Origin: a virus
DNA: 64,000 nt
Virus record (IMG/VR): IMGVR_UViG_3300037419_001822
Location: 32,001-96,000 of that record
Strand: one strand, 5' to 3'
Shown: positions 3,083-55,477 of the stretch, in pieces
Numbering within the stretch: the stretch's first letter is position 1
Layout: every line of letters begins with the position of its first letter
Program-made: the position numbers and the translations under genes
Notes under the pieces: generated by a model
Told to the model about the DNA's origin: nothing
What the model saw: the letters and a program-made list of their open reading frames with translations, nothing else
Database searches by the model: none

Positions 3083-3092
3083 TGTCCGCGCC

Positions 3093-24459: not shown

Positions 24460-25358
24460 TGGCCCGCCAGACCCCCGGCAACTACGTGCCGCTGGACGTC
24501 AACTACGCCCGAGACGTCGCGATCCGGAAGGCCGGACCGAACGCCGAGCTGCTCTACATCCGCTCGCTCGCCTACGCAAAAGGTTCCAGAACTGGCGGTT
24601 TCGTATCTGATTACGACCTCGACGTGGTTGGAATCGGACTCCGTGGAATCAAGTTGAGTGCGAAACGACTCGTGGAAGTCGGCCTCTGGGAGCGCGTCGA
24701 GGACGGCTGGATGATCCGCTCGTGGGAGCGGTGGAACGCCAGCGAGAAGATCGTTTCCGCAGGTGGGAAGCTCGGTAACCACAAGAGGTGGCACGCCGAC
24801 CGGGGCCAGTTCGACCCCGAGTGTGAGCACTGCGCGGAACACCCCCCGATCGCACCCCGATCGCACCCCGATTCGCCCCCGACATCGCCCCCCGAATCGC
24901 AAGGGAAGGGAAGGGAAGTAAAGACCCCCCCGTGCCCCCCCAACGACACCTCCGCTCACCCGCAGACCGTGGTCGACCCCTCCTCGGCACAGGCCGTGGT
25001 CTCGGACTGGATCGACACCCTCAAGCGCCGCCCGCCCGGCTCGGTGATCGGCCAGGTCGCCAAGATCGTCAAGACCCTCCTCGGTGAGGGCTTCTCGCCC
25101 ACCGAGATCGGCCAGGCCCTCGCCGTCATGAGCACCAAGGGACTCAACCCGTCGACCCTGCCAGCCCTGGTCAACGAGGTCGTCAACAAGTCCAACGTCC
25201 GCGCGATTCGCTCCGGCGTGGCCACCTCGGCCGACGGCAGCCGGGTCAAGTGGGTCAAGCCGACCGAGAAGAGCCGCTGGCGCGAGGCCTACTCCGACGA
25301 GGTCTGCGTCGGCATGTACAAGATCAAGTACATGAACGCCGGTGAGCAACCGGCATGA
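24459..25358 (+). CDS. Phage replication initiator protein
   Basis: LLYIRSLAY...LVEVGLWERVEDGWMIRSW...GKLGNHKRWH; internal iterons; followed by helicase. Confidence 0.8.
   Translation: MARQTPGNYVPLDVNYARDVAIRKAGPNAELLYIRSLAYAKGSRTGGFVSDYDLDVVGIGLRGIKLSAKRLVEVGLWERVEDGWMIRSWERWNASEKIVSAGGKLGNHKRWHADRGQFDPECEHCAEHPPIAPRSHPDSPPTSPPESQGKGREVKTPPCPPNDTSAHPQTVVDPSSAQAVVSDWIDTLKRRPPGSVIGQVAKIVKTLLGEGFSPTEIGQALAVMSTKGLNPSTLPALVNEVVNKSNVRAIRSGVATSADGSRVKWVKPTEKSRWREAYSDEVCVGMYKIKYMNAGEQPA
24844..24924 (+). repeat. Probable replication origin iterons: five CCCCGA(N0-2)TCGC units followed by an AAGGG purine tract
   Basis: Repeats seen directly inside the initiator gene, as in lambda O. Confidence 0.65.
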
Positions 25359-26605
25359 GCGTCGACTGGACCGAGATCCGCAACGTCGCCGCCGAGCGGC
25401 AGGTGCTCGGCTCGCTGATGGCCCAGCCAGCCCTCGCCGAGAAGGTCTTCACCATCGTCACCCCCGACGAGTTCGGGGTGGCCGCGCACGCCCAGATCGC
25501 CCTGCTGCTACACCGCATGCACCTGGCCGGGGAGTCGCTGAACGCGACCAACGTGATGACCACCGCGCGCAACGAGGGCATCCTCGGCAAGATCGGCGGC
25601 GGGCCCTACCTGTTCGAGCTGATCCAGCAGGTCGAGGTCGCCATGACCGCGCCCAAGCTGGCCGAGGAGATCCACCGCTGCGCCACCCGGCGGGCCATGT
25701 GCGAGCTGGCCACCCGCCTGGAGCAGCGCGCGGCCAACCCCGAGGCCGAGCCGATCGCCATCCTCAGCGAGACCCGGGCAGCCCTCGCCGACCTGCACGA
25801 AGCCGAGCTGACCACCAGCACGGTCGAGGTCGCCAGCCTCACCGACTTCCTCAGCCAGCAGGACGACGAGGTCGACTGGGTCATCCCCGACCTGCTGGCC
25901 CGCGAGGACCGGTTCATCCTGACCGGCGTCGAGGGTGCCGGGAAGATGATGATGCTGCGGCAGATCGCCATCTGCGCCGCCGCCGGGATCCACCCGTTCA
26001 CCCACCAGCGCATGCCCCGGCAGACGGTGCTGCTGGTCGACCTGGAGAACCCGGCGGCCGAGATGCGCCGCACCATGCGCAAGATGGTGACCTCCGCGCA
26101 GTCCGAGTCCCGGCTGGTCGACGTCACCGAGCGGGTGTTCGTGGAGCGGCGGCCCGAGGGCATCAACCTGGCCGACCCGGGCAACATCGCCTGGCTGATG
26201 AAGCGGATCACCGTCACCCGGCCGGACATCCTGATCATCGGCCCGCTGTACAAGGCGATGAACGACAACCCGAACGACGAGCAGGTCGCCCGCGCCGTGT
26301 CCGTCGCCCTCGACCTGGTCCGCACCCAGGGCAACTGTGCGCTGATGATCGAGGCCCACTCCGGGCACAGCAACGGCGTCAACGAGCGGCCCATCCGGCC
26401 CATCGGGTCGTCGCTGTGGCTGCGCTGGCCCGAGTTCGGCTACGGGCTGCGCTACGCCAAGACCGAGGACGCCGAGGAGCGGCGGCGCATGGAGCTGCTC
26501 ACCTGGCGCGGCTCCCGGGGTGAACGCGAATGGCCCAAGCACCTGATCATGGATCCGCGCTACGCGTTCCAGGAGGCCGTCGAGGGCGACCAGGAAGTCG
26601 CCTGA
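25355..26605 (+). CDS. Replicative helicase (DnaB-like N-terminus plus RecA/AAA_25 ATPase)
   Basis: AERQVLGSLM N-domain; GVEGAGKM Walker A; DLEN; GSSLW. Confidence 0.88.
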   Translation: MSVDWTEIRNVAAERQVLGSLMAQPALAEKVFTIVTPDEFGVAAHAQIALLLHRMHLAGESLNATNVMTTARNEGILGKIGGGPYLFELIQQVEVAMTAPKLAEEIHRCATRRAMCELATRLEQRAANPEAEPIAILSETRAALADLHEAELTTSTVEVASLTDFLSQQDDEVDWVIPDLLAREDRFILTGVEGAGKMMMLRQIAICAAAGIHPFTHQRMPRQTVLLVDLENPAAEMRRTMRKMVTSAQSESRLVDVTERVFVERRPEGINLADPGNIAWLMKRITVTRPDILIIGPLYKAMNDNPNDEQVARAVSVALDLVRTQGNCALMIEAHSGHSNGVNERPIRPIGSSLWLRWPEFGYGLRYAKTEDAEERRRMELLTWRGSRGEREWPKHLIMDPRYAFQEAVEGDQEVA

Positions 26606-30119: not shown

Positions 30120-31832
30120 TGACCGGCTACATCAAGCTCATCGCCACCGAGATCGCCGTCACCACCAGCGTGCTGCTGGCCCGCTGGCTGGGGGAGAAGC
30201 TCGCCGTCGCGATCGTCAACGCCTTCGACGTCGAGCCCGACCTGTACGACGAGGACGACTGACGCACGCCCGTACTGTCTGAACGGTTCATCCGTTCGGT
30301 GAGTCATACTGACCACGGTGAGGTGATCCTGCATGACCACGAAGAAGCCGCTGCCCTGTGACGGCTCGGCCGAGCAGTGGGCGTTCATCGCGGTGCTCGC
30401 CTGCGGGCTCATCGACGTGATCGAGCTGATGGTGCACCACGGCACCGACTGGCTCACCTACACCGTCGTCGTCGTCTCGCTCGGCCTGCTGTGGCGGCAC
30501 CACCGCACGTTCCACCAGCACCAGCCCGTCGAGGCCCCGGAGCGGGAGAAGATCCGATGACCTGGCCCGTCACTCCTGAGCCCACCTACCGGGTGGAGCA
30601 TCAGGACTGGTGCTACTCCGAGGCCCACGCCCGCTGCTGCAACCTCAACAAGGTCGACATCGAGGACTGCACCTGCGGCGCCGCCGAGGCGCAGGCCGAG
30701 ATCGACTCCCTCGCCGACACCGTCCGGGTGCAACGGCAGGCGCTCGACCGCATCGAGCAGTACGTCACCGACTGCGCCAACACGATCGGCGGTCAGCAGG
30801 TCAAGGCGATGGCCGCGTTCGTGCGCGACATCATCCGGACCGCCCGATGACCGAGGCCCCGCCCCGACCCGACCCCGAGATCGCGGACGTCGTGCCGCTG
30901 CCCGAGCTGTGCGCCACCGGCTGCAGCCACGCCTGGCACGGCATGCGCTGCCACTGCGGCTGCGCCAGCTCCTGGACGCCGTCCGGTGACTGACATGCTC
31001 AAGCCCGACCCCGCCGTGCTCGCCTGGATCGAGGAGTGCTACGACAAGGGCGAGCCGCCCAAGGCGATGTGGCAGCGGCCGTCCTACGCCCAGCTCCCCA
31101 ACTGCAACTGGTGCATCCACCGCGAGCACGACTTCCAGTGCGTCGACTGCGAATGCATGTGCAACAGCTCCCACCAGCGGCTCGATGACACCTGGCGGCC
31201 CACCAACCAGTACACGCAGGCCTGGCAGATCGCCAAGGCCATGGATGTCCTCGGCTGCGACGGCTGGGTCGCCCGGTTCATCCACGGCGTCGGCATCCAG
31301 CTCAAGCCCTACGGCCGCAAGTCCGACATCAAGAAAGTCCTCTACGGGGAGGCGTCATGACCACCCACCGGCCCGGCATCTTCCAGATCGGCCGGGTCAC
31401 CGACGACGGCGCCACGGTGACCATCTCCGGCTGGGGTGTCGGCCTGTGCGCGGCCAAGTGCACCTGCCACCGCGACCCCGCCTTCCCCAACCACGGCCTC
31501 CGGCTGCACGAGGGTGATGACGGCAGCCTCGGCCTGGCCAAGCACCGCACCTGCGACTGCTGCGAGCCCTGGCAGGCCGAGGAGCTGATGGCCGTCGTCG
31601 CCGACCTGGCCGAGATCCAGGCCGCCCCGGAGGTGTCCCGATGACCAGCACGATCGGCTCGATCCTCGGCGTCCCGGTGATCGAGTCCCGCTACCTGCCG
31701 CCCGGCGTGAGTCTGCTGCTGGCCCACAACCGGGCCGTCACCGCCGACCCGCAGGCGCTGCGGAACCGGATCGAGCTGCGCAACTGGCTGGCCGACCGGG
31801 TCGCCGAGATCGAGCGGAGGTGGTTCGGGTGA
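30119..31832 (+). CDS. Seven small hypothetical ORFs (starts 30119, 30333, 30557, 30847, 30986, 31357, 31641), several Cys-rich or membrane
   Basis: Coupled ORFs with phage codon usage. Confidence 0.6.
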
Positions 31833-31989
31833 CCGGCTGCACCTGTCACCGCTGCCAGGACCACCGTGATCGTCAGCTCAACAGCGAGGCGTGGCGCGCC
31901 CTGAACGCGGCCACCCGGAGGTAGTTCGTGCAGGGATCCCCGGCCCACTACTGGGCCCGGTGCGCCAACTACGACGAGCTGCGGCTGCG

Positions 31990-32380
31990 GCCCTGCCCGG
32001 GGTGGATCGAGTACCACCCCGGGGATCTCGACGCCGCCTGCGACACCTGCCGAGGCCGGTGCGGGTGGCAGGTGTCCGGCCCCGGGTGGCTCGATCGGGA
32101 CACCCTCCCCGGGTGGTTCAGCGAGCCCCCCCCGGGAGTGGTTCGTCGGATAGCCCCCCGGCGGTGGCGGACAGGCCCGCCCCCGGTGTCGGCGAGACCC
32201 CCCGGAGGTGCCGACAACCCGCCCCCCGGGTGGCAACAAGACCACCCCCCGGTAGTTCGAACCCCACCCCCCGGTGGCGAAGACCCCCCCGGGGTGGTTC
32301 GAAGACCCCCCGGGGTGGCAACAAGACCCCCCGGGGTGGCAAACGGGCCCCCCGGGGGTGCCGACGACCCCACCCCCCTC
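31990..32380. repeat. Degenerate tandem array of about 12-15 C4-7-GG(G)GTG(G) units, period about 17-28 bp
   Basis: For example ccccccggggtggcaacaaga, cccccccggggtggttcgaaga, ccccccggggtggcaaacggg. Confidence 0.85.
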
Positions 32381-32525
32381 CACCGACTGTCTGAGATTCG
32401 TTCAGACACGTCGGGGAACCGGCCCAGCTTCGCTCAGGCCAGCCTGGGAGCCCTTCCCGGGTGTCCCGGCATGGCCCGTTTTGTCCACGGGGCGCTCAGG
32501 GGGTCGGCGGTGGTCTCGTACTGTA

Positions 32526-32554
32526 TTGCTTCCTGTATGGACACAGTGTAGAAT
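32526..32554 (+). promoter_or_regulatory. Strong housekeeping-sigma promoter
   Basis: TTGCTT-N17-TAGAAT; RBS AAGGAG before GTG 32591. Confidence 0.65.
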
Positions 32555-32590
32555 CGAGGTAGACACCAGCCCGAAACGAAGGAGAGCACC

Positions 32591-33063
32591 GTGACCGCCG
32601 CCGCGACCGAGATCCGCTTCGAGATCCACATCTGCGCCGAGCGCCGCTCCTACTACGCGACGTTCTCCACCGAGGCGCAGGCCCTGGCCTTCCTGGAGCC
32701 GCGCGGCTGGACCCACGCCTACTGGCCCGCCACGGACGCCGACACCGACCTGGTCGAGCAGAACTGGCCGACCCTGGCCGACCGGCTCTGGCCGATCTGC
32801 GAGCACGGGCTCTCGCTCCAGCTCTGCTCCGGCCCCAACCACTTCGGCGAGCCGTACGACGACTGGGCGAACTGATGACCGAGACCTTCACCGTCCTGGT
32901 CGGCTTCACCACGGTGCGGCCGATCATCCCCGACCAGCACCACTCGATCGTGCTGGTGGCCACCGATCGCGGCCCGATCGACGCCCAGCTCGTCGCCGCC
33001 CAGATGGTCGGCAGTCACAGCGTCATGCCGACGTCGACCGAGATCCTGTTCGTGGAAATCTGA
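32591..33063 (+). CDS. Two-gene unit (32591-32875, 32875-33063) with its own promoter and terminator
   Basis: TGATG coupling; hairpin terminator downstream. Confidence 0.7.
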
Positions 33064-33078
33064 GCTTCCAACGATGAA

Positions 33079-33115
33079 GCGCCGGAGCTGATGAAAGCTC
33101 CGGCGCGATTTTGTT
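33079..33115 (+). terminator. Intrinsic terminator
   Basis: GCGCCGGAGCT-gatgaa-AGCTCCGGCGC followed by GATTTTGTT. Confidence 0.8.
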
Positions 33116-33160
33116 CTGGGACGTTTTCGCAGGTCAAACGCGGACTTCGCGGATCTTCCG

Positions 33161-33305
33161 CGCGATTTTCGCTCTGAAACGGTATTGTTTTTTCGCGATT
33201 TTGAAAGCTCGCGCGCGATTTTAGCTCTGGCGCGGTATTAGCTCTGGCGCGGTATTGCCGCCGCGCCGCCGCGCGCGCGCGATATTAGCTCTGAGACGGT
33301 ATTGT
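33161..33305. repeat. Four direct repeats GCTCTG-N3-CGGTATT (33171, 33224, 33241, 33288) with CGCGATTTT-type repeats in AT-rich non-coding DNA
   Basis: Seen directly. Confidence 0.85.
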
Positions 33306-33776
33306 AAAACGGCACCGGCCGGTTCACGTACAGGCCTTCTGGTACGGACCCGTTCCGTTCCGACTCGACTCGGACCGGAACGCGCGGTTCCGAGGCGGAA
33401 CGGTCTCGTCCGTATGAGCTGAGACCAGCGAAACGGTCCGTTATCGCAACCGTGCTGGCAGCGTCCATGATCTTGATTCTGCGCCTCCCTGCCTCGCTCC
33501 TGTGCCGACACCCCATTCTAGCAGGGCAGATATACGGACTCTTATGTACGCTAACGATCGGCGAGCCTCTGACCAGGCCTTATGCCGATCCGACACGCCC
33601 GACCGCGTGGACGCGGGACACGCCCGAGGCGTGTTGTCTAAAGCGTTGCGACACGCCGCGATTTACCTGCAGGTTTGGTTAGACACGGCGTGTCGTGCGT
33701 ATCGACACGCGCAGTGTCACACGTGCGCGCGGTTCCTCATCCGGCAGGAACCGGCCGACCAGGAAGGTTCAAGATC

Positions 33777-34808
33777 ATGACTGAGGCCTACCCATTCCGC
33801 CCGGTTATCGCCATTCGCAAGGGTCGGAACGCCATTCACCTTTCTCAGCAGTCGGGAACGTGGCTCGGCGCAGCGCTATTCACGTCGACACTGTGCGGCC
33901 GCGAGATCACGACTGCGGCCGGATGGGTAGAGGTGCAGGAATCCGCTACCTGTGCCCGGTGCGAGAGGGAATGCGCGAACATTGACAGTGACCGCGCCTA
34001 TGTGATCGAGACCGATCACGCGGCCGCAATTGCAGAGGACGCGGAACGCTTCCCGGTCGCCTCGGCGGAATTCCGCATCGGCGAGCGAGTCGGCATCGTG
34101 CGCGGCCTGCAATCCGTGAACGGTCCGCAGGTCTACATGTACGGCACCGTCGTCCGTCACGTCACGTCGTGGAACGACAGCACGGAATATGTCGTGCTCG
34201 GCGAGGACGGAGAGGAGCTGGTCTACGGCGCATATCTCCTGCGGCACGTTCCCGAGAGAATCGCGCCGAGCGTCTGGCAGTCTGCCGCACAGGAGAACGC
34301 CAGTGCACAGAATCGGCGCGCTGCAGAAACCGCCGCTGTCCATGCCGCAGACACTGCCTCGGATGACTTAGCGGACCTGTGCCTCTCCGCCATGTACGAA
34401 GGCCTAGAAGCCTCTCAGTGCCCGCAGGACGCGCCAGAGGATGAGGCGCGCCAGGACAGTACGGAAGGCATCCCCTCGGACGACTCAGAGGCCTACGCGC
34501 ACTCCTGCCCAGTCTGTGGCGCTCCTGCGCACTTTCCCTGTGAAGATCCGTCCTGCTCCTATGCCGTGCCGATGCACCCTGAGCGCGCGCTAGCCGATGC
34601 GTACGACTCCGTCACATTCGGCACGATTGACGACACTCCCGCCACGCGCGAATTCACGGAACAGGAATTCGACACGGTCTCGGAGGAAATTCTGGCCGCT
34701 GTGCGTGGAATCGCAAAGGCACACGGTCTCGCTGCCTCCGTTCTCGACATGGCGCGCGCCTCCGATGACGCCGCTAACGCTCTGTCCCGCTACGGCATCA
34801 CCCGATAA
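33777..34808 (+). CDS. Acidic multi-domain hypothetical protein (first gene of low-GC island)
   Basis: AGGAAGG RBS, ATG 33777; H..LCG...TCARC and CPVC..C..H Zn motifs; atypical codons. Confidence 0.75.
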   Translation: MTEAYPFRPVIAIRKGRNAIHLSQQSGTWLGAALFTSTLCGREITTAAGWVEVQESATCARCERECANIDSDRAYVIETDHAAAIAEDAERFPVASAEFRIGERVGIVRGLQSVNGPQVYMYGTVVRHVTSWNDSTEYVVLGEDGEELVYGAYLLRHVPERIAPSVWQSAAQENASAQNRRAAETAAVHAADTASDDLADLCLSAMYEGLEASQCPQDAPEDEARQDSTEGIPSDDSEAYAHSCPVCGAPAHFPCEDPSCSYAVPMHPERALADAYDSVTFGTIDDTPATREFTEQEFDTVSEEILAAVRGIAKAHGLAASVLDMARASDDAANALSRYGITR

Positions 34809-34841
34809 CACTTCCCACGAATCGGAACCGGAGATCCTGAC

Positions 34842-35521
34842 ATGTCTGCAGTCATCGGAATTGTCGGAATCGTCGCACTCGCAGGAATCTACGTCTGGGC
34901 AGAAATCTACTGCCACATTCGAGACCGTCACACGGTCGGCCCGCGTCCTCTCATCCGTACCGACATTGACGACACCCTCCGCGCAATTCCGGGTGTCTAC
35001 GTTCTGCACTCCGAATCCGCTAACGACCTCCAGCTCACCCTCTTCTGATTCCGGAAGGATTCCCTGTCATGTTCGCGATCGTCGCTCAGATTCTGGTCTA
35101 CCTCACCCTTGCTGCATTGGTTCCATTGACGATTGTCACCGGACACCAGGCAGCACAGGCGCACGCGGAAGGCGCAGCCTCCCCCGATGCGGACACCCTT
35201 ACTCCGACCCTTTACTGAGAGAGGCAAACGGCCGTGCGAATCCGAACCGCTCAGGCAGCCTGTGCCGCTGTGCTGTGCGCCTCCCTGCTCCTAGTCCCTA
35301 CTGCAGGCTCCGAGAGGCCTAGCGGCGTTTCTGGGGCCTCTGGCGACGCTGCCAGTAGTGAGGCCTCCTGGCGCGTCGACACGGCGGAGCGCGCCACGTG
35401 CATTCCGTACCTGTGGGAATCGTCCGACGACGGAATAGGCGTGGCGGAAATGCTCTCCCATGGCTGGCACACAAGCGGAGAGGACGGACGCGCTTTCGCA
35501 CTCTATCCGCCGAATTGCTGA
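34842..35521 (+). CDS. Three small membrane/secreted ORFs (34842-35048, 35069-35218, 35234-35521)
   Basis: Each has an RBS and an N-terminal hydrophobic segment. Confidence 0.55.
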
Positions 35522-35579
35522 CAGCCTTGGTCGCGGCCGGAATTCCGGCCGCGCGCCATGGATGCCAGAGAGGCACCCT
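35518..35579 (+). repeat. 62-nt structured junction element, copy 1
   Basis: Same length as copy 2 and a 28-nt identical block; 8-bp hairpin. Confidence 0.85.
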
Positions 35580-35601
35580 GCCGAATAGGGAGGCACACAC
35601 A

Positions 35602-35808
35602 ATGCGCAATCTCTGCCACGTCTGCCGGAGGCTCCGTCCCGCGCGCGCATTCCGATTCTCTGTCCATGTCTGTGATGACTGCGAGCGTGCGCCGCAGTAC
35701 GTCACTGGCGACGGCGTTTCTCATTACACGCGCGAGGCAGCGTTCCGGCATGCCGATTCGGTAGCGGCACGCACCGGTCAGATTATCGCGATTGAGAGTG
35801 CTCTCTGA
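35602..35808 (+). CDS. Small CxxC...CxxC protein flanked by the two junction elements
   Basis: GGGAGG RBS, ATG 35602. Confidence 0.65.
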   Translation: MRNLCHVCRRLRPARAFRFSVHVCDDCERAPQYVTGDGVSHYTREAAFRHADSVAARTGQIIAIESAL

Positions 35809-35866
35809 CCGCTTTGGTCGGGCCCGACCACTCGGGCCCGCGCCATGGATGCCAGAGAGGCACCCT
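35805..35866 (+). repeat. 62-nt structured junction element, copy 2
   Basis: Compensatory changes in the hairpin relative to copy 1. Confidence 0.85.
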
Positions 35867-35889
35867 CACAGAGAGAGAGGCGCAGGACA

Positions 35890-36660
35890 ATGCTCAGCAC
35901 ACAAGCACTCGGAACGGAACTAGCTACCCGCGTCCGGTCCGCCGTCTCCGCCGTTGCCTTCCTCACTGGACAGAGCGAGGCGCACGCGGAAACGGAATTA
36001 GCGTCCCTCGCGGGTGTCGTCGTCAATCCTGTGCGACAGGACAGAATCGCACAGGCATATGACACCATGCCACGCATTCCCCACGGAATGCGTGAGCTGC
36101 GCGAGGCCTGCCACGCATGGACAGTGTTCGCTCTGGAGATCCGCGCGCAATGGGATGCGCTGCACTCCCTCGGATTCTCGCTCACTGTCGAGTCATTCGA
36201 CCCATATGCCGGACCGGCCGAAATGTTCGGCGACGTCGCCGACTACAGAATCCGCGTCCTGGCGACCGATGTGTGCGGAGAACATCCCTACCTATCGAAT
36301 GAGGATAACGACCTATTCCGCGCCGTTCACGACATTCTGGGCCACGCTGCCACAGGACGCGGATTCGACAGGCACGGTGAGGAAGCCGCGTACCAATCGC
36401 ACTGCCGCATGTTCTCACCCGTCGCGCGCCTCGCATTGGCAACGGAGACGCGCGGACAGAATGCCTCCCTGCACAGCAATGGTCGATTCCCTGTGCAACG
36501 TCTCGGCATCCTCCCCGGATGGGCCCGCGAGACGGACGCACTCGCATTCGGCCTGCCGATCACATTCGACGACATGCGGGCCGAGGCAGCGGCACACCAG
36601 GACGCGCACACCTACGCACTCCGAGAGGGAATCGCACAGCGACCCTCTCAGAGCCTCTGA
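35890..36660 (+). CDS. Zincin-like metalloenzyme-type domain protein (HDxxGH...GEE)
   Basis: NDLFRAVHDILGH...GFDRHGEEAA...ATETRGQN; activity is inference. Confidence 0.65.
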   Translation: MLSTQALGTELATRVRSAVSAVAFLTGQSEAHAETELASLAGVVVNPVRQDRIAQAYDTMPRIPHGMRELREACHAWTVFALEIRAQWDALHSLGFSLTVESFDPYAGPAEMFGDVADYRIRVLATDVCGEHPYLSNEDNDLFRAVHDILGHAATGRGFDRHGEEAAYQSHCRMFSPVARLALATETRGQNASLHSNGRFPVQRLGILPGWARETDALAFGLPITFDDMRAEAAAHQDAHTYALREGIAQRPSQSL

Positions 36661-36681
36661 GAGACCACAGGAGACATCGCC

Positions 36682-36900
36682 ATGACGTGCCGCACTCGCA
36701 CTAGCGGGAACCGTGCCCACCGTTGCTCTCGGGCCCATTGGGAACTAGTCGAGTCATACCGGCTCTGGCGAGAGACCGAACTACTCGCGGCAGAGGCTGC
36801 CACGAATGGATATGAGACCGAACTAGCGGAGTACTGGCAGACACATACGCGGCCCACGTTCCGCGCCTACCTAATCGGAGTCGGGCGCACTGCCCGCTGA
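36682..36900 (+). CDS. Small hypothetical protein flanked by identical 21-bp repeats
   Basis: CTGAGAGACCACAGGAGACAT at 36657 and 36897. Confidence 0.7.
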   Translation: MTCRTRTSGNRAHRCSRAHWELVESYRLWRETELLAAEAATNGYETELAEYWQTHTRPTFRAYLIGVGRTAR

Positions 36901-36921
36901 GAGACCACAGGAGACATTGTC

Positions 36922-37566
36922 ATGACTGACCTAGTGCCCAGTGCCCGGAACATCCTCTCCGTTTGGCACAGTGCCACTCCGGCCGATGTGAACGCGGGGA
37001 GGGAGTGGTACCGACGCGCACGCGCTTTCGCGGCAGAGCTAGATCCTGCCGACCCTGAGCGCGCGGCGGCCGTTATCGCTGTGCTCTCTCCGCAATTGTC
37101 CTGGCCGCGAAACGCACAGCATGCCCGGCACGCGTACGAATTGCGGGCCGAGGGTGCGACCGTGGATGAGATCACAGCCGCACTGCCGATGCTCAAGCGC
37201 AATGCCCGGAAGGCGGCCGCAATTCTGTGGGGTGCCGATCCGGACGCCGTCGTGAGTGGCCCTAAGGTCCGGGCATTCTGGCATTCCATCGCTCGGCCCG
37301 ATGATGCCCGCTCCGTCGTCATCGATCGGCACGCCGTGGATGTGTCACTCGGAATGGTCACCGATGACGCTACCCGCTCCCGTCTCATTGGGCGGAAGGG
37401 TGGATATGCCACCGTCGCCGATGCCTACATTCGTGCGGCCCGCATTCTGTCAGAACAACTCGGCGACACAATCACAGCAACAGAATTGCAAGGTGTGACG
37501 TGGACAGCATGGCGACACACTCACGCACTGGCATTCCATGGCGACACTGAGAGGAAAGCAAACTGA
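36922..37566 (+). CDS. HhH-GPD/Endo III glycosylase-fold-like phage protein (DUF7178-like)
   Basis: EWY, AVLSPQLSWPRN, GPKVRAF, VVIDRHA, LQGVTW motifs. Confidence 0.7.
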   Translation: MTDLVPSARNILSVWHSATPADVNAGREWYRRARAFAAELDPADPERAAAVIAVLSPQLSWPRNAQHARHAYELRAEGATVDEITAALPMLKRNARKAAAILWGADPDAVVSGPKVRAFWHSIARPDDARSVVIDRHAVDVSLGMVTDDATRSRLIGRKGGYATVADAYIRAARILSEQLGDTITATELQGVTWTAWRHTHALAFHGDTERKAN

Positions 37567-37976
37567 TGAGCACAATGGCAACGCTTGACGCTGCTATCCG
37601 TTTCGACGTGCTGCCCGCACTTGTGTCAGAGGGTGGATTCACATTCGACGTAGCGAGTGCGTCACTGGTCGGCATCGGCGAGAGGCGCGGATACGCTATC
37701 GCTATCCCTGACAGTGAGCGCATTCTAGGCAGTGAGGACGTCACTACCGAGGATCTCGTATCAGCCATTGCTGATCTCATCATGGAATATGCCGACGCAC
37801 TGAGCACTGGCGCAATGGTAGGTGGCTGGCACTCGACAGAGCGCAATGTGTATATGGTCGAGATCAGCGACGTGATCACATGTGATCGAACCAACGCTAT
37901 TGCCATCGGTCGAATGAGAGGACAGGAAAGCGTATTCGACCTGAGCAATGGTGAATGCGTGAGCTGCCGCACATAG
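37566..37976 (+). CDS. Putative SAM-lyase-like (SAMase-fold) protein
   Basis: GGW...EIS...AIAIGRMRGQESVF resembles the G[YW]..E...A..QE/QD core of phage SAM lyases. Confidence 0.5.
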   Translation: MSTMATLDAAIRFDVLPALVSEGGFTFDVASASLVGIGERRGYAIAIPDSERILGSEDVTTEDLVSAIADLIMEYADALSTGAMVGGWHSTERNVYMVEISDVITCDRTNAIAIGRMRGQESVFDLSNGECVSCRT

Positions 37977-38001
37977 CGGGCACAGCACATTCCCGACTAA
38001 T

Positions 38002-38036
38002 CGGGCCGCAACCTTAGGGTTGCGGCCCGCTTTGTT
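38002..38036 (+). terminator. Intrinsic terminator ending the island operon
   Basis: CGGGCCGCAACC-ttag-GGTTGCGGCCCG followed by CTTTGTT. Confidence 0.85.
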
Positions 38037-38267
38037 GTGCCCAACGGAAACCATGCGTGCTCGGAACTAGATCGTGCGCTTCGTGCCAGCATGGTTGCGC
38101 AGACTGTCGAGTCTCAGCGCAGAACATGCGATTGCTGAGCCTGTGAGACGCGCTGAGCGACGATCGTAGGGTCACGGGTATAGACACACCAGCCTAGGAT
38201 CTCCCGTCGGCAGAGAGGCACTGAGCGGGTCGACGTTGGGTCCTACTCCATTGCGCACAACTAAATA

Positions 38268-38345
38268 GGGGGGGGCCATCTAGAAGTTCAGACGATCGGG
38301 GGCCGCCGACTCCGCGCCGGTAGGCGAAATCCCTCCCCGGCGGTC
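38268..38345. other. Probable cos region; candidate 3' overhang CGGTAGGCGA at 38318-38327
   Basis: G-run...GAAGTTCAG...CCGGTAGGCG...CCCTCCCCGG layout recalled from cos-type actinophages; composition changes here; HNH and terminase genes downstream. Confidence 0.55.
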
Positions 38346-38420
38346 TTGAGGGGGTTCGCGCGCGCGGTGTATGCGCGCGCGTATTGCGGCCTGTCGGCCC
38401 CCTGTCTAAACTGTTGATCT

Positions 38421-39527
38421 ATGGGGTCAAGCGTGTCCTGCGCTACGTGTGGTGAAGCGACGACCCGACGGATGTACTGCTCCGTCCAGTGCAACTCGAA
38501 GGCCAAGGCCGAGCGGCAAAAGCGGCCGTGCGCTGGTGGATGCGGCCGGTTGGTCCACCGTCCTGGTCACGGCTCGTCGGGCGACGCGCCCCGTATGTGC
38601 AACCCCTGTCGCCGCGCCAGGCGCTGCTCGGAGCCAGGCTGTGCGGAGCGGCCCGAGGCCAGGGGGGTTTGTCGCCGCCACTACCATCTCGCCTGGAAGT
38701 CCCGCGCCTTCGGCAACCCCGAGTGCTCGGTAGTGGGCTGCTCTCGCGGCGCGCGCAGCCACGGCCTCTGTCAGGTCCATGCGATGCGGAAGCGGCGCGA
38801 TGAGGGTTACGTCGACCCGCCGCGTACCCGGCTGGTCGACAGAACGTGCAGGCGTTGCGACCTGGCGTTTAGGGGCTACTGCGGCACGAAGTACTGCTGG
38901 ACCTGCCGATCGGCAGTACTGGCCGAGCGCAACCGTGCGAGCGCTCGCCCCGCGAAGACCGGGCCGTGCAGCCACTTCTCGATCAACGACTGCCGGGCGT
39001 GTGGCCGCCTCTTCGTTGACAAGGGTAAGCGTGGTCGAGTCGCATGCTCGGCCGAATGCCGTGGGCAATTGGCCCGGGACCGGGCGAATCGACAGCGCGT
39101 CTGCGCCGGTTGTGGGGTGCCGGTGCCGAAGGGGTCGTATCAGCGTCGGTGTGAGCCTTGCCGGGTAGCCCGGCGCGAGGCGGTCCGCCGGGCGGCCTCG
39201 AAGGTGGCCGGGAAGCATCGCGCGCGGGCACGGCGCTTCGGGCGTCGCTACGAGCCCGGGTTGACCTGGCGGACGATCGCCAAGCGCGACGGGCTGCTCT
39301 GCTGGCTCTGCGGCCAGTGGACCGACCCCGATGACTTCGACCTGGTCGAGGGGAGGGATCGGCGCAGCGCCGTCGCCTGCGGCCCGACCTACCCGACGCT
39401 CGATCACGTCGTCGCGCTGTCCCGGGGCGGTGATCACGTCGGCGACAATGTCCGCCTGGCCTGTCACGCCTGCAACGCACGGAAGGGCGATCGAGATCCG
39501 GCCGAGTACCTCACCTGCCTGGGATGA
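38421..39527 (+). CDS. Large multi-Zn-finger HNH endonuclease
   Basis: Many CxxC units; C-terminal CWLC...TLDHVVALSRGGDH...NVRLACHACNARKG. Confidence 0.9.
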   Translation: MGSSVSCATCGEATTRRMYCSVQCNSKAKAERQKRPCAGGCGRLVHRPGHGSSGDAPRMCNPCRRARRCSEPGCAERPEARGVCRRHYHLAWKSRAFGNPECSVVGCSRGARSHGLCQVHAMRKRRDEGYVDPPRTRLVDRTCRRCDLAFRGYCGTKYCWTCRSAVLAERNRASARPAKTGPCSHFSINDCRACGRLFVDKGKRGRVACSAECRGQLARDRANRQRVCAGCGVPVPKGSYQRRCEPCRVARREAVRRAASKVAGKHRARARRFGRRYEPGLTWRTIAKRDGLLCWLCGQWTDPDDFDLVEGRDRRSAVACGPTYPTLDHVVALSRGGDHVGDNVRLACHACNARKGDRDPAEYLTCLG

Positions 39528-40208: not shown

Positions 40209-40714
40209 ATGTCTGCTCCAACCGCTCCGGCCCCGGTTCGCACGGTCGAGCAGATCGACCGGGAGCTGCAGGCCCTGGTGAAGGGCCGCTCGTCCAACCG
40301 GGCCAGCGTGCAGACGCTGATGGGCCGGATCGTGGAGTCCACCGGCCTGATCGACAAGCTGCTGGCCGAGCGGTCGACGCTGACCAACGCCTGCCCGCCC
40401 ACCCTCGAAGGTCTCGCCTGAGCATGGCCCACGTCGAAGGCACCCTCTGCCTGGTCAACACGCACGGCCCCTGGTTCCGCGTGCAGGGCCGCCACCTGGC
40501 CAAGCCCGGCCTGCGGGTCCGGCTCTCGCCGCAGGAGGGCGTCATCATCGACGCCGTCTTCGGCCGCCAGGTGTGGGTGACGCTGGGCTGGTACCCGCGC
40601 CACCTCGCCTGCCGTGAGGTGCGCGGTGTCGGCGGGCTGCCGTCGCTGCGGCACCGCTGCTGGGCGAAGAGCCTGCGGGCCCGCACGATCATCTTCCCGG
40701 CCGTCGCCTCATGA
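40209..40714 (+). CDS. Two small hypothetical ORFs (40209-40421, 40424-40714)
   Basis: GC3-rich frames; second is coupled to HNH. Confidence 0.6.
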
Positions 40715-41004
40715 CGACCCGCCCGGGTCGCAACACGGGCAACTGGCAGCGCCTGTCGAAGGCGTTCAAGGCCGACTGCACGCGCACTCGCAGGCCGTGC
40801 TGGCTGTGTTCGCAGCCGATCGACTACTCGCTGCCCTACGACGACCCGGGCGCCTTCTCGATCGACCACTTCTACCCGGTGAGCACGCACCCGGATCTGG
40901 CCGAGGTTCCCGCGAACTTCCGGGCCAGCCACTTGGACTGCAACAAGCGACGGGGGAACCGTCCCCCGCGCCCGTCGCTGGGTGTGACGTCGTTCCGCTG
41001 GTAG
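40711..41004 (+). CDS. HNH endonuclease (HK97 gp74-like packaging cofactor)
   Basis: CWLCSQPID...SIDHFYP...NFRASHLDCNKRRG. Confidence 0.9.
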   Translation: MTTRPGRNTGNWQRLSKAFKADCTRTRRPCWLCSQPIDYSLPYDDPGAFSIDHFYPVSTHPDLAEVPANFRASHLDCNKRRGNRPPRPSLGVTSFRW

Positions 41005-41108
41005 CTGTTCCGCTCGACCCCTTTGACGTCCACCCGCGCTCAGTCCCTGGGAGGGGATCGCTGATGGACGTCCACGTTCCCCGAGGCACGACCGGCCGGG
41101 TCTGAGGC

Positions 41109-42302
41109 ATGAGCCTGGACGATGCGCTGCGCAAGCCGACCCCGGGCCCGGTGCCCGACCGGCCGCCCTCGCCGCCCTCGACCGAGTTCCGCGTCGAGGG
41201 CACCTCGGCCGAGGTGCTGGTGAACAACGCCCGCAGCCGCTCCGACGCGGGCGGCGACGAGGTGCTGCGCGCCAACGGCCTGGACCCCGAGGAGTGGATC
41301 GCCACCGCGTTCCGCACGTCGGAGTGGACCATGCACGGCGGCGAGCAGGGCCTGTCGACGCGCTGGAACTTCACCCGCAAGCCCGACGAGCGGCCGTCCC
41401 CGCCGGGCCCGCCGCTGGATGACCTGTTCGCCGCCATCGAGCACCGGCCGGTGCCCGCCCGCTCGGTCGAGCACGGGTCGCACGGTTTCGTCGTCGCGCT
41501 GGGGGACATGCAGTTCGGCAAGATCGACGGCGACGGCGCGGCCGGAACCCTGGACCGGGTCCTGTACTGCCTGGACGCCGCGCGGGCCGCGCTGGACTCG
41601 TACCGGAACCGGTACGACATCGGCCACGTGCACCTGGGCTGGCTCGGTGACCACATCGAGGGCTTCCAGTCCCAGGGCGGCGCCAACGTGTGGCGCACCC
41701 CCTTGACCTTGAACGAGCAGATCCGGCTGACCCGCCGGGTCATGCTGCACGGGCTGCAGTTGTTCGCCGAGTCCGGCGTGCCGCTGATGAGCATGGCGGC
41801 CGTCCCCGGCAACCACGGGGAGACGACCCGCTTCGCCGGGCACGGCGTGACCCGCTACGACGACTCGCACGACACCGAGTCCTTGATCTCGGTGTCCGAT
41901 GCTGCCGCGCTGGACCCGAACCGGTTCGGCCACTGCCGCTTCTACGTACCGGAGACCGACGAGCTGACCCTCGCCGTCGATGTCGCCGGGACGCGCATCG
42001 CGCACGCCCACGGCCACCAGTGGAAGACCAACCGCCACTGGGAGTGGTGGTCCGGCCAGGACTTCGGTCGCTCCCCGATCCGGGGGGCGCACATGCTGCT
42101 GTCCGGGCATCTGCACACGTTCCACGCCCACGCCGACGGCGGGCGCCTGTTCGTGCAGGTGCCGTCGCTGGAGGCGGAGTCGACGTGGTGGCGGCACAAG
42201 ACCGGCACCGGCGGCGACCCGGGCCTGGTGGTCGCGGTGACCAAGGACGGTGTGACGCCGGTCCTGGAGCAGATCCGCCCACCGATCCCGAGGAACTCAT
42301 GA
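41109..42302 (+). CDS. Calcineurin-like metallophosphoesterase
   Basis: GDMQ, LGDHIEG, GNHG, AHGH, GHLH motifs. Confidence 0.9.
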   Translation: MSLDDALRKPTPGPVPDRPPSPPSTEFRVEGTSAEVLVNNARSRSDAGGDEVLRANGLDPEEWIATAFRTSEWTMHGGEQGLSTRWNFTRKPDERPSPPGPPLDDLFAAIEHRPVPARSVEHGSHGFVVALGDMQFGKIDGDGAAGTLDRVLYCLDAARAALDSYRNRYDIGHVHLGWLGDHIEGFQSQGGANVWRTPLTLNEQIRLTRRVMLHGLQLFAESGVPLMSMAAVPGNHGETTRFAGHGVTRYDDSHDTESLISVSDAAALDPNRFGHCRFYVPETDELTLAVDVAGTRIAHAHGHQWKTNRHWEWWSGQDFGRSPIRGAHMLLSGHLHTFHAHADGGRLFVQVPSLEAESTWWRHKTGTGGDPGLVVAVTKDGVTPVLEQIRPPIPRNS

Positions 42303-45127: not shown

Positions 45128-45198
45128 TCCGGGCTCGTCCAATGGCAAGACGCCGCGCTCTGGACGCGGAAATTGAGGTTCGACCCCTTGGCCCGGAG
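45128..45198 (+). tRNA. tRNA-Gln (anticodon CTG)
   Basis: Acceptor TCCGGGC/GCCCGGA; anticodon arm CCGCG-ctCTGga-CGCGG; T-loop TTCGACC; no encoded CCA. Confidence 0.88.
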
Positions 45199-45200
45199 CT

Positions 45201-45285
45201 GGAGAGCGGCCCGGACGGCAAGGGCTGCGGCTGCTATCCGCAAGGCCGGGGCGACCCGGAGCAGGTTCGACTCCTGCGCTCTCCG
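45201..45285 (+). tRNA. tRNA-Ser (anticodon GCT), long variable arm
   Basis: Acceptor GGAGAGC/GCTCTCC + G discriminator; TGCGG-ctGCTat-CCGCA; variable stem CCGGG/CCCGG; GCAGG-TTCGACT-CCTGC. Confidence 0.88.
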
Positions 45286-45355
45286 CAGCCGCACAAATAG
45301 CACGTCAGCGTGCCATTTGTGCCAACACCCCATCCCAATAGGAAGGCGCACCCAC

Positions 45356-45751
45356 ATGCGCTCTCTCGACGAAGCACTCAACCTGTTCGCCTACCACCCG
45401 GCCACGCCGGAGGTGGCGGCCAAGTACGCCAAGCTGCGCGGCCTGGTGATGGAGCTGGCCCAGGACTCCTGGGACCTGATCCCGCCCGGCGCGGAGAAGA
45501 CCCTGGCCTACCGGGGGCTGCAGGACTTCCTGCTGCACGCCAACTGCGCGGTCGCGATGACCACCGAGGCCGACCTGGTCACCCCGCACGTCGCCCGCGT
45601 CCTGCCGACGCCCGCCGAGGCGGCGCAGGCGGGCATGGACTACATCAAGGCCCGCTACGGCGACCAGGACCAGGCGGGGCGGGTCCGCGACTGCATCGGC
45701 GGCACCTGCACCTGCCAGCCCAATGGCCGGGGCGACCTGGAGAACCGGTGA
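45356..45751 (+). CDS. Acb2/Tad1-like helical-hairpin protein (candidate immune-signal sponge)
   Basis: FAYHP...YAKLR...PPGAEKTLAYRGLQDFLLHANCAVA pattern. Confidence 0.6.
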   Translation: MRSLDEALNLFAYHPATPEVAAKYAKLRGLVMELAQDSWDLIPPGAEKTLAYRGLQDFLLHANCAVAMTTEADLVTPHVARVLPTPAEAAQAGMDYIKARYGDQDQAGRVRDCIGGTCTCQPNGRGDLENR

Positions 45752-47088
45752 AGGACGCCGAGCAGCTCTCCGCCGACCTGGACGACAAGCTCAGCGACGT
45801 CCTCGCCGGTGAAGGAGAGATGGTCACCCGCTGGGGCGCCGTCGCCGAGGTGATCGCCCCGGACGGCAAGCGCTACCTGCGCACCTTCTGGTCGGACGAC
45901 CTGAGCCGCTGGGACGGCATCGGCATGCTCACGGCCGCGATGGACGACCTGCGCGCGATGCGGGACCGCGAGGTCACCGAGTGAACCGCTACATGATCGC
46001 CGGGATCCTCGCCGACATGCGCGACGGCAAGGAAGTGCTCCTGCTGTCCGAGTCCTCCGTGGCCGCCCGCGACGCCTTCGAGAACATGGCCGCCTGCATC
46101 GAGCCCGGCGAGGTCACCGTCCGCACCGTCGGCAAGGAGCGCATCCACGCCTACGGCAAGGGCGCTGTCCGCTTCCGCTCCATCCGCAGCCACCTCGACA
46201 ACAACGTCGCAGCGGATGTGGTCGTCGCCGACGTCGATGCCCGGGATCACCAGGAGCAGATCGAGCGGCTCTGGTTCCACTTCGCCCGCCTGGGCAAGTC
46301 CGTCGAGCTGGTCCAGCACTGATGCGCTGCACCTGCCAACGCTCCGAGGGCCCGCACCACCACCGCTTCGGCGGCACCTACCCGTGCCCCGCGCCCGGCC
46401 CGTGCCGCGACTGCGGCAACGTTGCCCCGGTCGAGTTCGTCCCGCCCGACTGGGACGAGGACGACGAGGACCCGCGCAACCGATGATCATCCGCTGGCTG
46501 CACCGTCGTTACGGGCACACGCAGACGGTCACGCGCGTCTCGGTGCCCGGCTGGGATCCCTTCGCTCGCGGTGAGCTGATCCGCTGCTCCTGCGGTGAGG
46601 TCTGGGCGCGATGACCGGCGGCGAGCCACGGGAGTTCCCACCGGCGCGGGAAACCGAACCGGCCTGGCCGATGTGGCTGTACTGGTGCGTCGTTGCCCTG
46701 CTCGTCGCCATCCCCGTCGTGGTGATGTTCACATGACCGGCGGCCCGGACGACGGCCGCGAGCTGTACCGGCTCGGCGACGAGCCCTGCCTGATCTGCGG
46801 CGAGACCATCCCCATCGACTGGGACGGCCTGCTCGTCTGGCACTACAAGGGCAAGACCCTCGGCCAGCTCTCCTGGTGCTCCGGCTCCCGGCAGCGCCTG
46901 CACCCGGACTACCTCGGTGCCTGAGCACACCTGCGTGCACCACCTCGTGGCCCAATCGGGCCAGAACCTCTACTACCAGTGCCGCTGCGGCTCCCGCCGC
47001 CACGGTGTCGCGAACTACGCGAAGCGGCACGTCCCCGTCGACCGGAGCTGGCTGGCGGGGGAGAAGGACAACCCGTCATGACCGCTGA
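45748..47088 (+). CDS. Seven small hypothetical ORFs before the terminase (starts 45748, 45981, 46322, 46483, 46611, 46733, 46917)
   Basis: Coupled ORFs, several with Cys pairs. Confidence 0.55.
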
Positions 47089-47704
47089 ACGAGACCAGCA
47101 GAAGGCGTACGCCCTCAGGCTGCACCTGGCAGGCAACTCCCTCAAGGAGATCGCCGAGGCCCTGGAGCTGACCGAGGTGCGCGCACGCAAGCTGCTGACG
47201 GACGCCCTGGACGAGAAGGTGCCTCGCGACCTGCCGGAGCGGGCGCGCACCGAGATCGCCCGGATCGACCGGATCATCGCGGGCATCTGGAACGCCGTCG
47301 AGGGCGGCGACCTGGAGTCGATCGACCGCTACCTGCGGCTGTCGGAGCGCCGCGACAAGCTCGCCGCGCCGAAGCCGAACACGCAGGAGCTGGAGAAGGC
47401 GTTCAAGCGGACCGCCGCCGCGTCGAAGGCGCTGATCGACGGCGTGGACGACGCGATCGTGGAGCTGGGCCGCAAGACCGCCGAGCAGATCGACTACGTC
47501 ACCGCCACCGGCAACCCGACCGACGTCACCAAGGCGCTGTACCTGCAGACGTACGTGCACAAGGCGCTGCGGGAGATGCTGGCCACTCCGGCGGCGCGCG
47601 CCGACGCGGAGGCGAAGAAGCCCGGCGGCGCGACCGGCGGGGAGACGCAGAAGGCCTCGAAGTTGACGCAGCTCCGCTCGGTGACGGGCAGCAAGCGCGC
47701 CTGA
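47078..47704 (+). CDS. terS: Terminase small subunit (N-terminal HTH)
   Basis: AYALRLHLAGNSLKEIAEALEL HTH; LREMLATPAAR...KLTQLRS; directly upstream of terL. Confidence 0.8.
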   Translation: MTAERDQQKAYALRLHLAGNSLKEIAEALELTEVRARKLLTDALDEKVPRDLPERARTEIARIDRIIAGIWNAVEGGDLESIDRYLRLSERRDKLAAPKPNTQELEKAFKRTAAASKALIDGVDDAIVELGRKTAEQIDYVTATGNPTDVTKALYLQTYVHKALREMLATPAARADAEAKKPGGATGGETQKASKLTQLRSVTGSKRA

Positions 47705-47705
47705 G

Positions 47706-53936: not shown

Positions 53937-55477
<1,541 letters not shown>

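Follow-up and report, generated by a model that had tools for sequence, protein, structure and literature searches.

Among described systems, those closest to the locus considered here are the DNA regions that enter a new cell first (0.3/Ocr of phage T7, the S-adenosylmethionine (SAM) lyase of T3, the pre-early region of T5 and the leading regions of plasmids) and the morons of lambdoid phages and cos-adjacent hotspots of P2-like phages, which typically comprise one to three prophage-expressed genes, often for defence. A further comparison is with the polyvalent proteins of phages, which have been proposed to be injected as effectors of the early phase of infection (Iyer et al. 2017, PMC5512222). 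Here we describe an island of about 5 kb, carrying nine open reading frames (ORFs), that lies at 33.1-38.03 kb of a 64,000-nucleotide window. The window corresponds to bases 32001-96000 of the 113,439-bp linear IMG/VR record IMGVR_UViG_3300037419_001822 (CheckV completeness 88%), which represents a large cos-type actinophage, probably a Streptomyces phage. Positions are those of the window unless otherwise stated.

The island resembles the first-entering regions in that it places accessory genes on the end expected to enter first; moreover, in Streptomyces phage TinaBelcher, a relative of island gene 8 (family DUF7178) and a gene annotated as Ocr-like antirestriction belong to one right-end operon. 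It differs from them in having no match, in the searches made, to Ocr, SAM lyase or any other known anti-defence family, and in being transcribed toward the end. Like morons and P2-like hotspots it deviates in composition, has a leader and a terminator of its own, carries mosaic cargo and lies next to cos in an integrase-encoding phage, but it has nine genes, none recognised as defence, and genes 6 and 8 come from families found in the early or virion-delivered contexts of lytic phages. Finally, the predicted fold of gene 6 matches internal domains of polyvalent proteins, whereas the gene 6 domain stands alone, away from the head genes and without a Pfam model. We interpret the island as a horizontally acquired, self-contained accessory operon at the predicted cos end, which, controlled by a regulator of its own, may serve in early host takeover or counter-defence; we favour this reading tentatively, with somewhat less than even confidence.

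Composition, codon use and site avoidance

The island is the sole compositionally alien segment of the 113-kb record. GC content per kb is 0.595-0.632 across 33-38 kb, compared with about 0.70-0.75 in most other 1-kb windows (about 71% GC), and there is no second trough of this kind anywhere in the record. The GC content at third codon positions (GC3) of the nine ORFs is 0.59-0.72, versus 0.8-0.97 elsewhere, and A and T occupy 16% and 17% of these positions in the island as opposed to 2.6% and 3.5% elsewhere. Sliding GC and GC3 thus agree with the abrupt change in composition and the A/T-ending codons that had been described in the initial annotation, which was made from the letters and their ORFs. 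The island itself is real, and one of its edges required adjustment: the compositional break starts at approximately 33.0-33.1 kb, and the start previously placed at 33590 falls within a 670-bp leader.

The tetranucleotide signature of the island correlates with that of the rest of the record at r=0.26, compared with 0.90±0.03 (minimum 0.79) for the 98 other windows of the same size. Other GC-rich actinophage contigs, which included contigs of 61-65% GC bearing the nearest relatives of genes 8 and 9, gave signature correlations of 0.75-0.92 with the record and of 0.12-0.26 with the island. Contigs with the nearest gene 8 and gene 9 relatives were therefore rejected as a match for the donor signature, as they show the ordinary actinophage signature, unlike the island.

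TTC, ATC and CAG had been reported to be usually preceded by A. This is correct for TTC, which is preceded by A in 63% of cases in the island (20 of 32 in-frame TTC codons follow an A-ending codon) and in 4% elsewhere; for ATC (32% versus 3%) and CAG (40% versus 7%) it is true only in relative terms. Synonymous-codon shuffles gave enrichments as the strongest signals (ATTC, z 5.6; GGAA, 5.3; GAAT, 5.2), and depleted tetramers were few (CGCC, z -4.1; CTTC, z -3.9). No longer consensus around ATTC or GAAT was found in the island, and we rejected hypermutation by transitions because C-TTC contexts disappear but T-TTC does not arise. The codon bias is marked chiefly by the enrichment of ATTC/GAAT and by A directly before TTC.

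A second pattern extends over the whole phage. Five palindromic hexamers, GCCGGC (about 202 expected), CCGCGG (114), CAGCTG (73), GAGCTC (67) and CTCGAG (66), are absent from the entire 113-kb record, in which about 520 would be expected in total, and GGCGCC, CCCGGG, ATCGAT and ACCGGT are also depleted; general avoidance of palindromes was not detected. The hexamer purge is classic restriction-site avoidance, and the avoided sites match enzymes known from Streptomyces and its relatives, of the SacI, SacII, XhoI, PvuII and NaeI types. Within the island the five hexamers were observed 0 times, whereas shuffles predict 10.5±2.9 occurrences and not one of 1000 reached zero. Because the purge is a whole-phage property, it cannot account for the codon bias of the island. 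The earlier suggestion that this bias reflects motif avoidance is therefore partly right, in that five hexamers have been purged, but the purge is genome-wide and the bias is dominated by ATTC/GAAT enrichment. That the island is free of the same five hexamers argues either for prolonged exposure to the restriction pressure that acts on the rest of the phage or for acquisition from a phage with the same host range.

Lysine (Lys) had been noted as nearly absent, and the counts agree: there is none in 35890-36660 or 37566-37976, and the island as a whole has 0.5% Lys, versus 2.0-2.6% elsewhere. The Lys-poor run spans 31641-36900 (2 Lys in 1377 amino acids). It takes in four high-GC genes directly upstream of the island (31641-33063; 63, 207, 94 and 62 amino acids) that also have no Lys, and thus the Lys desert crosses the compositional boundary. 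We rejected avoidance of AAG/CTT at the DNA level, because the depletion of AAG is confined to the in-frame position, which indicates an effect at the protein level, namely scarcity of Lys. Lys is likewise absent from gene 9 relatives at 71-72% identity and scarce in gene 6 relatives; gene 8 retains the invariant Lys of its family. Lysine deserts are common in Actinobacteria and their phages, where they have been linked to pupylation (PMC10665810), and because they have already been reported in actinophages, the island presents an interesting case that is not new in kind.

A predicted chromosome end and the anatomy of the operon

A probable cos site had been proposed about 280 bp past the terminator of the island. 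Because TerS lies 8.6 kb downstream and the records of the nearest phages start at their terminase genes, we doubted this placement at first. We took the three Arthrobacter phages whose TerL is nearest, constructed a profile hidden Markov model from their cos junctions and scanned both strands of the whole record, which yielded one significant match, at 38315-38379 (nhmmer, E 9.4e-4, 15.3 bits). The next match had an E of 6.7, and the best score in a control set of 1.44 Mb of other GC-rich actinophage DNA was 7.5 bits. Five colinear motifs with matching spacing relate the region to the genome ends of Arthrobacter phages LittleTokyo, Vulpecula and Andrew, and the end that they predict, between positions 38322 and 38323, is approximately 290 bp after the terminator at 38002-38029, close to where it had been proposed. 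In a plain local alignment with a single cos junction the 38.2-kb score was joint third among 1132 windows; it is the three-phage profile with its control, and not this alignment, that makes the call convincing. We regard cos at 38322/38323 as likely. On this sequence evidence the island is the predicted right end of the virion chromosome and, by analogy with lambda, HK97 and SPP1, from which the polarity of last-packaged and first-ejected DNA is drawn, that end would be packaged last and ejected first.

Two other positions were considered and rejected. Next to TerS (about 46.3-46.9 kb), overlapping small ORFs fill the stretch and the cos profile has no match. The other is 41022, where the one close relative, an IMG/VR contig that is 96-99% identical to the record (L007), has its end, so that it leaves the island site uncovered; this position aligns poorly to cos junctions and has no profile match, and an assembly break at a polymorphic homing-endonuclease gene fits equally well. 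BLAST of both candidate cos gaps against phages gave no matches. Each of GTTCCGCT and GACGTCCAC is repeated around 41022. The second HNH gene of the region lies rightward of the predicted cos by 2.3-2.7 kb, and its product shares 48% identity over the full length with gp73, the terminal HNH protein of LittleTokyo. An ORF at 45813-46322 is homologous (38% over 63 amino acids) to gp1 of LittleTokyo, whose gene comes first after cos there. In the present record the homologue is separated from the predicted cos by about 7.5 kb of additional genes, namely two for HNH endonucleases, one each for an exonuclease and a glycosyltransferase, and two for tRNAs.

The features of the island and its edges, all on the + strand, are as follows.

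33079..33106, +, intrinsic terminator of the preceding high-GC operon, marking the left island edge (11-bp stem, 9 GC pairs, T-run; -28.3 kcal/mol, z -6.0)
33154..33303, +, four direct repeats of the GCGCGATTTTAGCTCTG...CGGTATT type in the leader, found nowhere else in the 113-kb record
33507..33720, +, eight GACAC sites in an operator-like array (five are of the CGACACGC(C) type), directly upstream of gene 1
33777..34808, +, gene 1, 343 amino acids, acidic (55 Asp plus Glu, 2 Lys), ribosome-binding site (RBS) aggaagg
34842..35048, +, gene 2, 68 amino acids, hydrophobic N-terminal stretch (probable membrane anchor), no Lys, no family match
35069..35218, +, gene 3, 49 amino acids, one hydrophobic helix, no Lys (from the translation)
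35234..35521, +, gene 4, 95 amino acids, signal-peptide-like N-terminus, no Lys, no family match
35519..35604, +, junction element, copy 1: stable hairpin (z -4.0), then the 27-mer GCGCCATGGATGCCAGAGAGGCACCCT, then an RBS
35602..35808, +, gene 5, 68 amino acids, CxxC...CxxC, zinc-ribbon-like, no Lys, no family match (a longer ORF was scanned)
35806..35892, +, junction element, copy 2 (z -4.6)
35890..36660, +, gene 6, 256 amino acids (271 from the ATG at 35845), phrog_3170 (PHROGs E 7e-40), no Lys
36658..36684, +, short junction repeat TGAGAGACCACAGGAGACAT(C/T)G(C/T)CATG, copy 1, 27 nucleotides
36682..36900, +, gene 7, 72 amino acids, phrog_7933 (function unknown; E 4e-6), no Lys
36898..36924, +, short junction repeat, copy 2, 27 nucleotides
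36922..37566, +, gene 8, 214 amino acids, DUF7178/phrog_3842 (Pfam E 5.6e-45), predicted HhH-GPD-fold, DNA-glycosylase-like
37566..37976, +, gene 9, 136 amino acids, acidic, no Lys, rare viral family (three homologous clusters)
38002..38029, +, strong intrinsic terminator that ends the operon (12-bp stem, 10 GC pairs, T-run; -30.9 kcal/mol, z -6.3)
38265..38381, +, predicted cos region, with the motifs TAGGGGGG, CGGGGGCC, GCCGGTA, GGCGAAATCCCTCCCC and GGGGGTTCGCGCGCG in this order and the predicted end between GCCGGTA and GGCGAAATCCCTCCCC

The nine ORFs are tightly spaced and most have a purine-rich, RBS-like sequence before the start. Together with the terminator at 38002-38029 they agree with the earlier description of one operon of nine ORFs closed by a strong terminator; the two terminators listed are the only terminator-like sites in 32.5-40.5 kb, each with z of about -6 relative to shuffles. 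The operator-rich leader occupies 670 bp (33.1-33.78 kb), and its array, which includes the densest GACAC cluster of the record, marks 33507..33720 as a probable regulated promoter region. A scan of the + strand, of a kind that covers Streptomyces promoters poorly, gave no sigma-70 consensus promoter. There are five exact CGACACGCC sites in the 64-kb window, all of them non-coding: three at 33591-33720 and two at 1010-1060. The latter leader (1021-1048) lies about 1.9 kb upstream of the integrase gene, and the operon there starts at about 1.47 kb. Because CGACACGCC is confined to these two leaders, a regulator shared by the island and the 1.47-kb operon is suggested. The other GACAC-rich spot of the record, at record positions 2880-3090 (window -29120..-28913), has six regularly spaced CCGACACC repeats, and the regular spacing suggests a coding repeat.

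The junction element is 81-86 nucleotides long, and its two copies are 85% identical; their stems differ in sequence, yet both pair, and the 27-mer is identical. Both junction pairs are duplicated within the island and occur nowhere else in the record, and we therefore consider the word 'cassette-like', which had been applied to these genes, to be justified. In a search for the island as a unit, neither the 20-mer from the junction element nor a pair of flank patterns retrieved a viral contig, and Rfam returned nothing in 32.5-41.5 kb.

Island genes and the surrounding phage

To annotate the island genes we scanned eight of the nine ORFs, all except gene 3, against Pfam and PHROGs at E 0.01 or better, and predicted the folds of genes 6 and 8. 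The cargo had been said to include an HhH-glycosylase-like protein, and the model of gene 8 (pLDDT 92.8) supports this assignment. Its best structural match is the archaeal SsOgg (3fhg; Z 12.4 over 173 amino acids, root-mean-square deviation 3.6 Å), and the top 50 entries of the fold search are all HhH-GPD glycosylases or homologues, with MjOgg, EndoIII, Mag1/2, OGG1 and AGOG following. K115 and D135-R-H are invariant across 34 relatives of gene 8; the invariant Lys and Asp are 20 residues apart, a suitable spacing for the catalytic residues, to which they may correspond. Bifunctional HhH-GPD members have similar Lys-Asp spacing. As modelled, then, gene 8 resembles the HhH-GPD glycosylases (archaeal Ogg/AGOG, EndoIII, MutY, Mag) in the fold of the whole domain and in its invariant Lys and Asp, but it differs in being without sequence similarity to solved members (phmmer and a profile search of the PDB gave no match) and in belonging to a family that is viral or prophage-borne. 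In the Pfam scan it matched DUF7178 and not HhH-GPD.

DUF7178 is found in 147 phage records, some of whose depositors annotate it as glycosylase or N-glycosylase/DNA lyase. Among the 25 of these 147 records that were listed, 23 have it within 11% of a genome end; they comprise mycobacteriophages of cluster A, phages of Streptomyces, Rhodococcus and Gordonia, podoviruses of Lentibacter and, out of four listed cyanobacterial podoviruses, two. Popcicle has it as the fourth gene counted from the right end, and it is also common in the early regions of obligately lytic podoviruses. The nearest IMG/VR relative of gene 8 is L005:4895-5470 (51% identity).

Gene 6 has the invariant residues H132, H147-D148-x2-G-H152, H162, E164, E165, H171 and E186, and this conserved cluster of His, Asp and Glu suggests that the product is probably a metal-dependent enzyme. 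The island had also been said to encode a zincin-like protein. We do not uphold that label for gene 6, whose motif is HDxxGH (H-x4-H with Asp), with no HExxH, and whose model (pLDDT 91.2) had no match among solved folds (Foldseek E > 0.8; maximum Z 2.6); the rows bearing on a zincin fold were marginal (selecase and PPEP-2, Foldseek E of about 2; YbeY, DPP III and ArdC, Z 2.0-2.2). Matches in BFVD, at E 3e-13 to 1e-6, were to internal domains of phage proteins of 430-1480 amino acids, under the names 'Large polyvalent protein associated domain', 'ART-PolyVal-like' and 'Phage head morphogenesis domain'. A relative of gene 6, gp99 of Mycobacterium phage Alice, sits among head genes, and no Pfam model covers the gene 6 domain. 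Judged from its model, gene 6 appears to be a stand-alone form of a domain that occurs inside huge polyvalent/MuF-type phage proteins.

Genes 1 and 9 had no informative relatives. Gene 1 consists of an N-terminal Cys cluster, a short domain at about residues 95-160 that also exists as stand-alone proteins of 51-80 amino acids, a second Cys cluster and a C-terminal half. Among 1.84 billion representatives searched, 50 relatives were found, nearly all over residues 1-200 only and none with a Pfam family, and no relatives of the C-terminal half. The description of this protein as an acidic Zn-finger is weakly supported: it is acidic and has Cys clusters, but its zinc-finger match (Phage_zn_bind_8, E 1.1e-4, 22.3 bits) is weak and falls under the 24-bit Pfam cut-off. 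The nearest IMG/VR relative of gene 9 is L006:2027-2500 (44% identity); scans of genome contigs and metagenomes with gene 9 returned nothing new, and a match to a proteasome beta subunit profile (38 residues, E 5e-4) was judged too short. A SAM-lyase-like protein had been listed in the cargo as well, and this we could not support: no SAM lyase match was obtained in the Pfam/PHROGs scans, in PDB sequence and profile searches (genes 1, 6, 8 and 9), in the Pfam assignments of gene 9 relatives or in the Atlas, a comparison at the level of sequence, with structure models for genes 6 and 8.

These nearest IMG/VR relatives of genes 8 and 9, on L005 and L006, are found on viral contigs of 46-54 kb, 2-5 kb in from the contig start and among small + strand ORFs; each occurs singly, with no other island gene nearby. 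For genes 6, 8 and 9 alike, the longest contig listed for relatives is an ENA contig of 5740 bp, perhaps the same one in all three cases.

Genes of the surrounding window are almost all on the + strand, and include the following.

2898-4343, tyrosine integrase (family match)
25346-26605, DnaB helicase (family match)
38421-39527, first HNH endonuclease (Pfam/PHROGs scans)
40618-41004, second HNH endonuclease (Pfam/PHROGs scans)
41106-42302, exonuclease (Pfam/PHROGs scans)
45128-45286, tRNA-Gln(CTG) and tRNA-Ser(GCT), side by side
46925-47704, TerS
47685-49403, TerL
59122 onward, long ORF in the tape-measure position, without a family match

A YqaJ-type exonuclease and a glycosyltransferase (both by family match) and portal, protease and capsid genes are also encoded in the window. 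The nearest relatives of TerL are those of small cos-type Arthrobacter phages (52-54% amino acid identity), and the head genes resemble those of mycobacteriophages of 75-110 kb. Just downstream of the tRNA pair, and outside the island, 45390-45557 weakly matches the Acb2/Tad1 hairpin domain (E 3.3e-4, under the cut-off) and also matches phrog_1454; its product is possibly an anti-CBASS/Thoeris sponge. Among the head and tail genes, 54230-55477 encodes a secreted transglycosylase-like (Rpf-type) domain and LysM (Pfam E 3.7e-29 and 1e-7).

Competing explanations

The island consists of individually mobile phage accessory genes that appear to have been stitched together at the repeated junction sequences. 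If it is an early host-takeover or counter-defence operon, a dedicated regulator would bind the CGACACGCC sites, shared with the second leader at 1.02-1.05 kb. The last-packaged right end, carrying the operon, would enter the cell first, and the genes would be expressed early and might counter defences; the predicted folds of genes 6 and 8 point to nucleic acids or to targets in the host as what they act on early in infection. Gene position and association make a role in counter-defence plausible, and this role draws indirect support from the location of DUF7178 in other phages and from the link of gene 6 to polyvalent proteins. It can also be imagined that the island is a first-entering set of effectors of a temperate cos siphovirus in which DUF7178, as a new HhH-GPD class, would excise a base modification made by the host or its defences, with a stand-alone polyvalent metal enzyme of unsolved fold beside it, and in which the almost complete lack of Lys in eleven consecutive end-proximal proteins would avert Pup-proteasome tagging in the actinobacterial host; we think this very unlikely.

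Several observations weigh against an early counter-defence module. Transcription runs toward the end, so that the promoter is about 4.6 kb inside, and in other actinophages (TinaBelcher, Popcicle) the operon with DUF7178 begins at the genome end and is directed inward. Entry order is known to matter for expression timing in T7 and T5, whose DNA entry is slow or staged; in a cos siphovirus it may have no such effect. No island protein matched a known anti-defence family in the Pfam/PHROGs scans, three of the nine gene products are tiny proteins of membrane or secreted type, which fit superinfection exclusion or lysogenic conversion better than counter-defence in the cytoplasm, and the phage already evades five type II specificities by passive means, over the entire genome. 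As to the chromosome end itself, the cos match is modest, with its 15.3 bits coming from a three-sequence profile and with a high composition-bias term, and the end of contig L007 at 41022, 18 nucleotides past the second HNH gene, is a competing though weaker candidate.

Much of the island would also suit a lysogenic-conversion ('moron') cluster, expressed from the prophage and bringing exclusion, defence or a change of envelope as its benefit, with the cos-adjacent site merely tolerating insertions. The phage encodes a tyrosine integrase, the operator motif is common to the leader upstream of the integrase gene, three products are small membrane or secreted proteins, and deviant composition with its own leader and terminator is the classic anatomy of such clusters; furthermore, P2-like prophages have variable anti-phage hotspots beside cos, and mycobacteriophage prophages express defence genes. 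We nevertheless regard this explanation as somewhat unlikely, because DUF7178 is common in the early regions of obligately lytic podoviruses and because the gene 6 domain is otherwise virion-delivered, which argues for a role at infection and not in lysogeny. In addition, the island proteins had no defence-family match in Pfam or PHROGs, although no search with dedicated defence models was made.

Entry order would be irrelevant if the island were recently transferred mosaic DNA, that is, the newest and still unameliorated acquisition at the right end, where actinophage genomes would generally gather small, dispensable genes of fast turnover. Its signature is alien both to the record and to other actinophage contigs, and small hypothetical-gene arrays at the right ends of LittleTokyo, TinaBelcher and Popcicle, together with the single occurrence of island genes elsewhere, are what such traffic would produce. 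The full purge of the five hexamers is at odds with it, as are the intact, tightly coupled ORFs with their conserved junction elements and elaborate operator array, and the family invariant residues that genes 6 and 8 retain, and we consider it unlikely. It is highly improbable that the island is a DNA-maintenance module, in which gene 8 would be a base-excision repair glycosylase acting on oxidative or alkylation damage of high-GC phage DNA and its neighbours would be passengers. This would account for one of the nine genes, and the recurrent end or early location of DUF7178 across unrelated phages would not be expected of a housekeeping repair gene. The best structural matches of gene 8 are indeed 8-oxoguanine and EndoIII-type repair glycosylases, and several depositors label its relatives accordingly, but no sequence-level link to solved glycosylases accompanies them.

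The locus allows a prediction of where the genome of this uncultured phage (about 113+ kb) ends, and it presents DNA of foreign composition that is yet free of the five sites avoided by the resident phage, and thereby separates site selection from compositional amelioration. If the island is indeed expressed first and counters defences, temperate cos-type actinophages would come under the leading-end logic known from T7, T5 and plasmids, and DUF7178 and phrog_3170, two large uncharacterised phage families, would gain a testable role.

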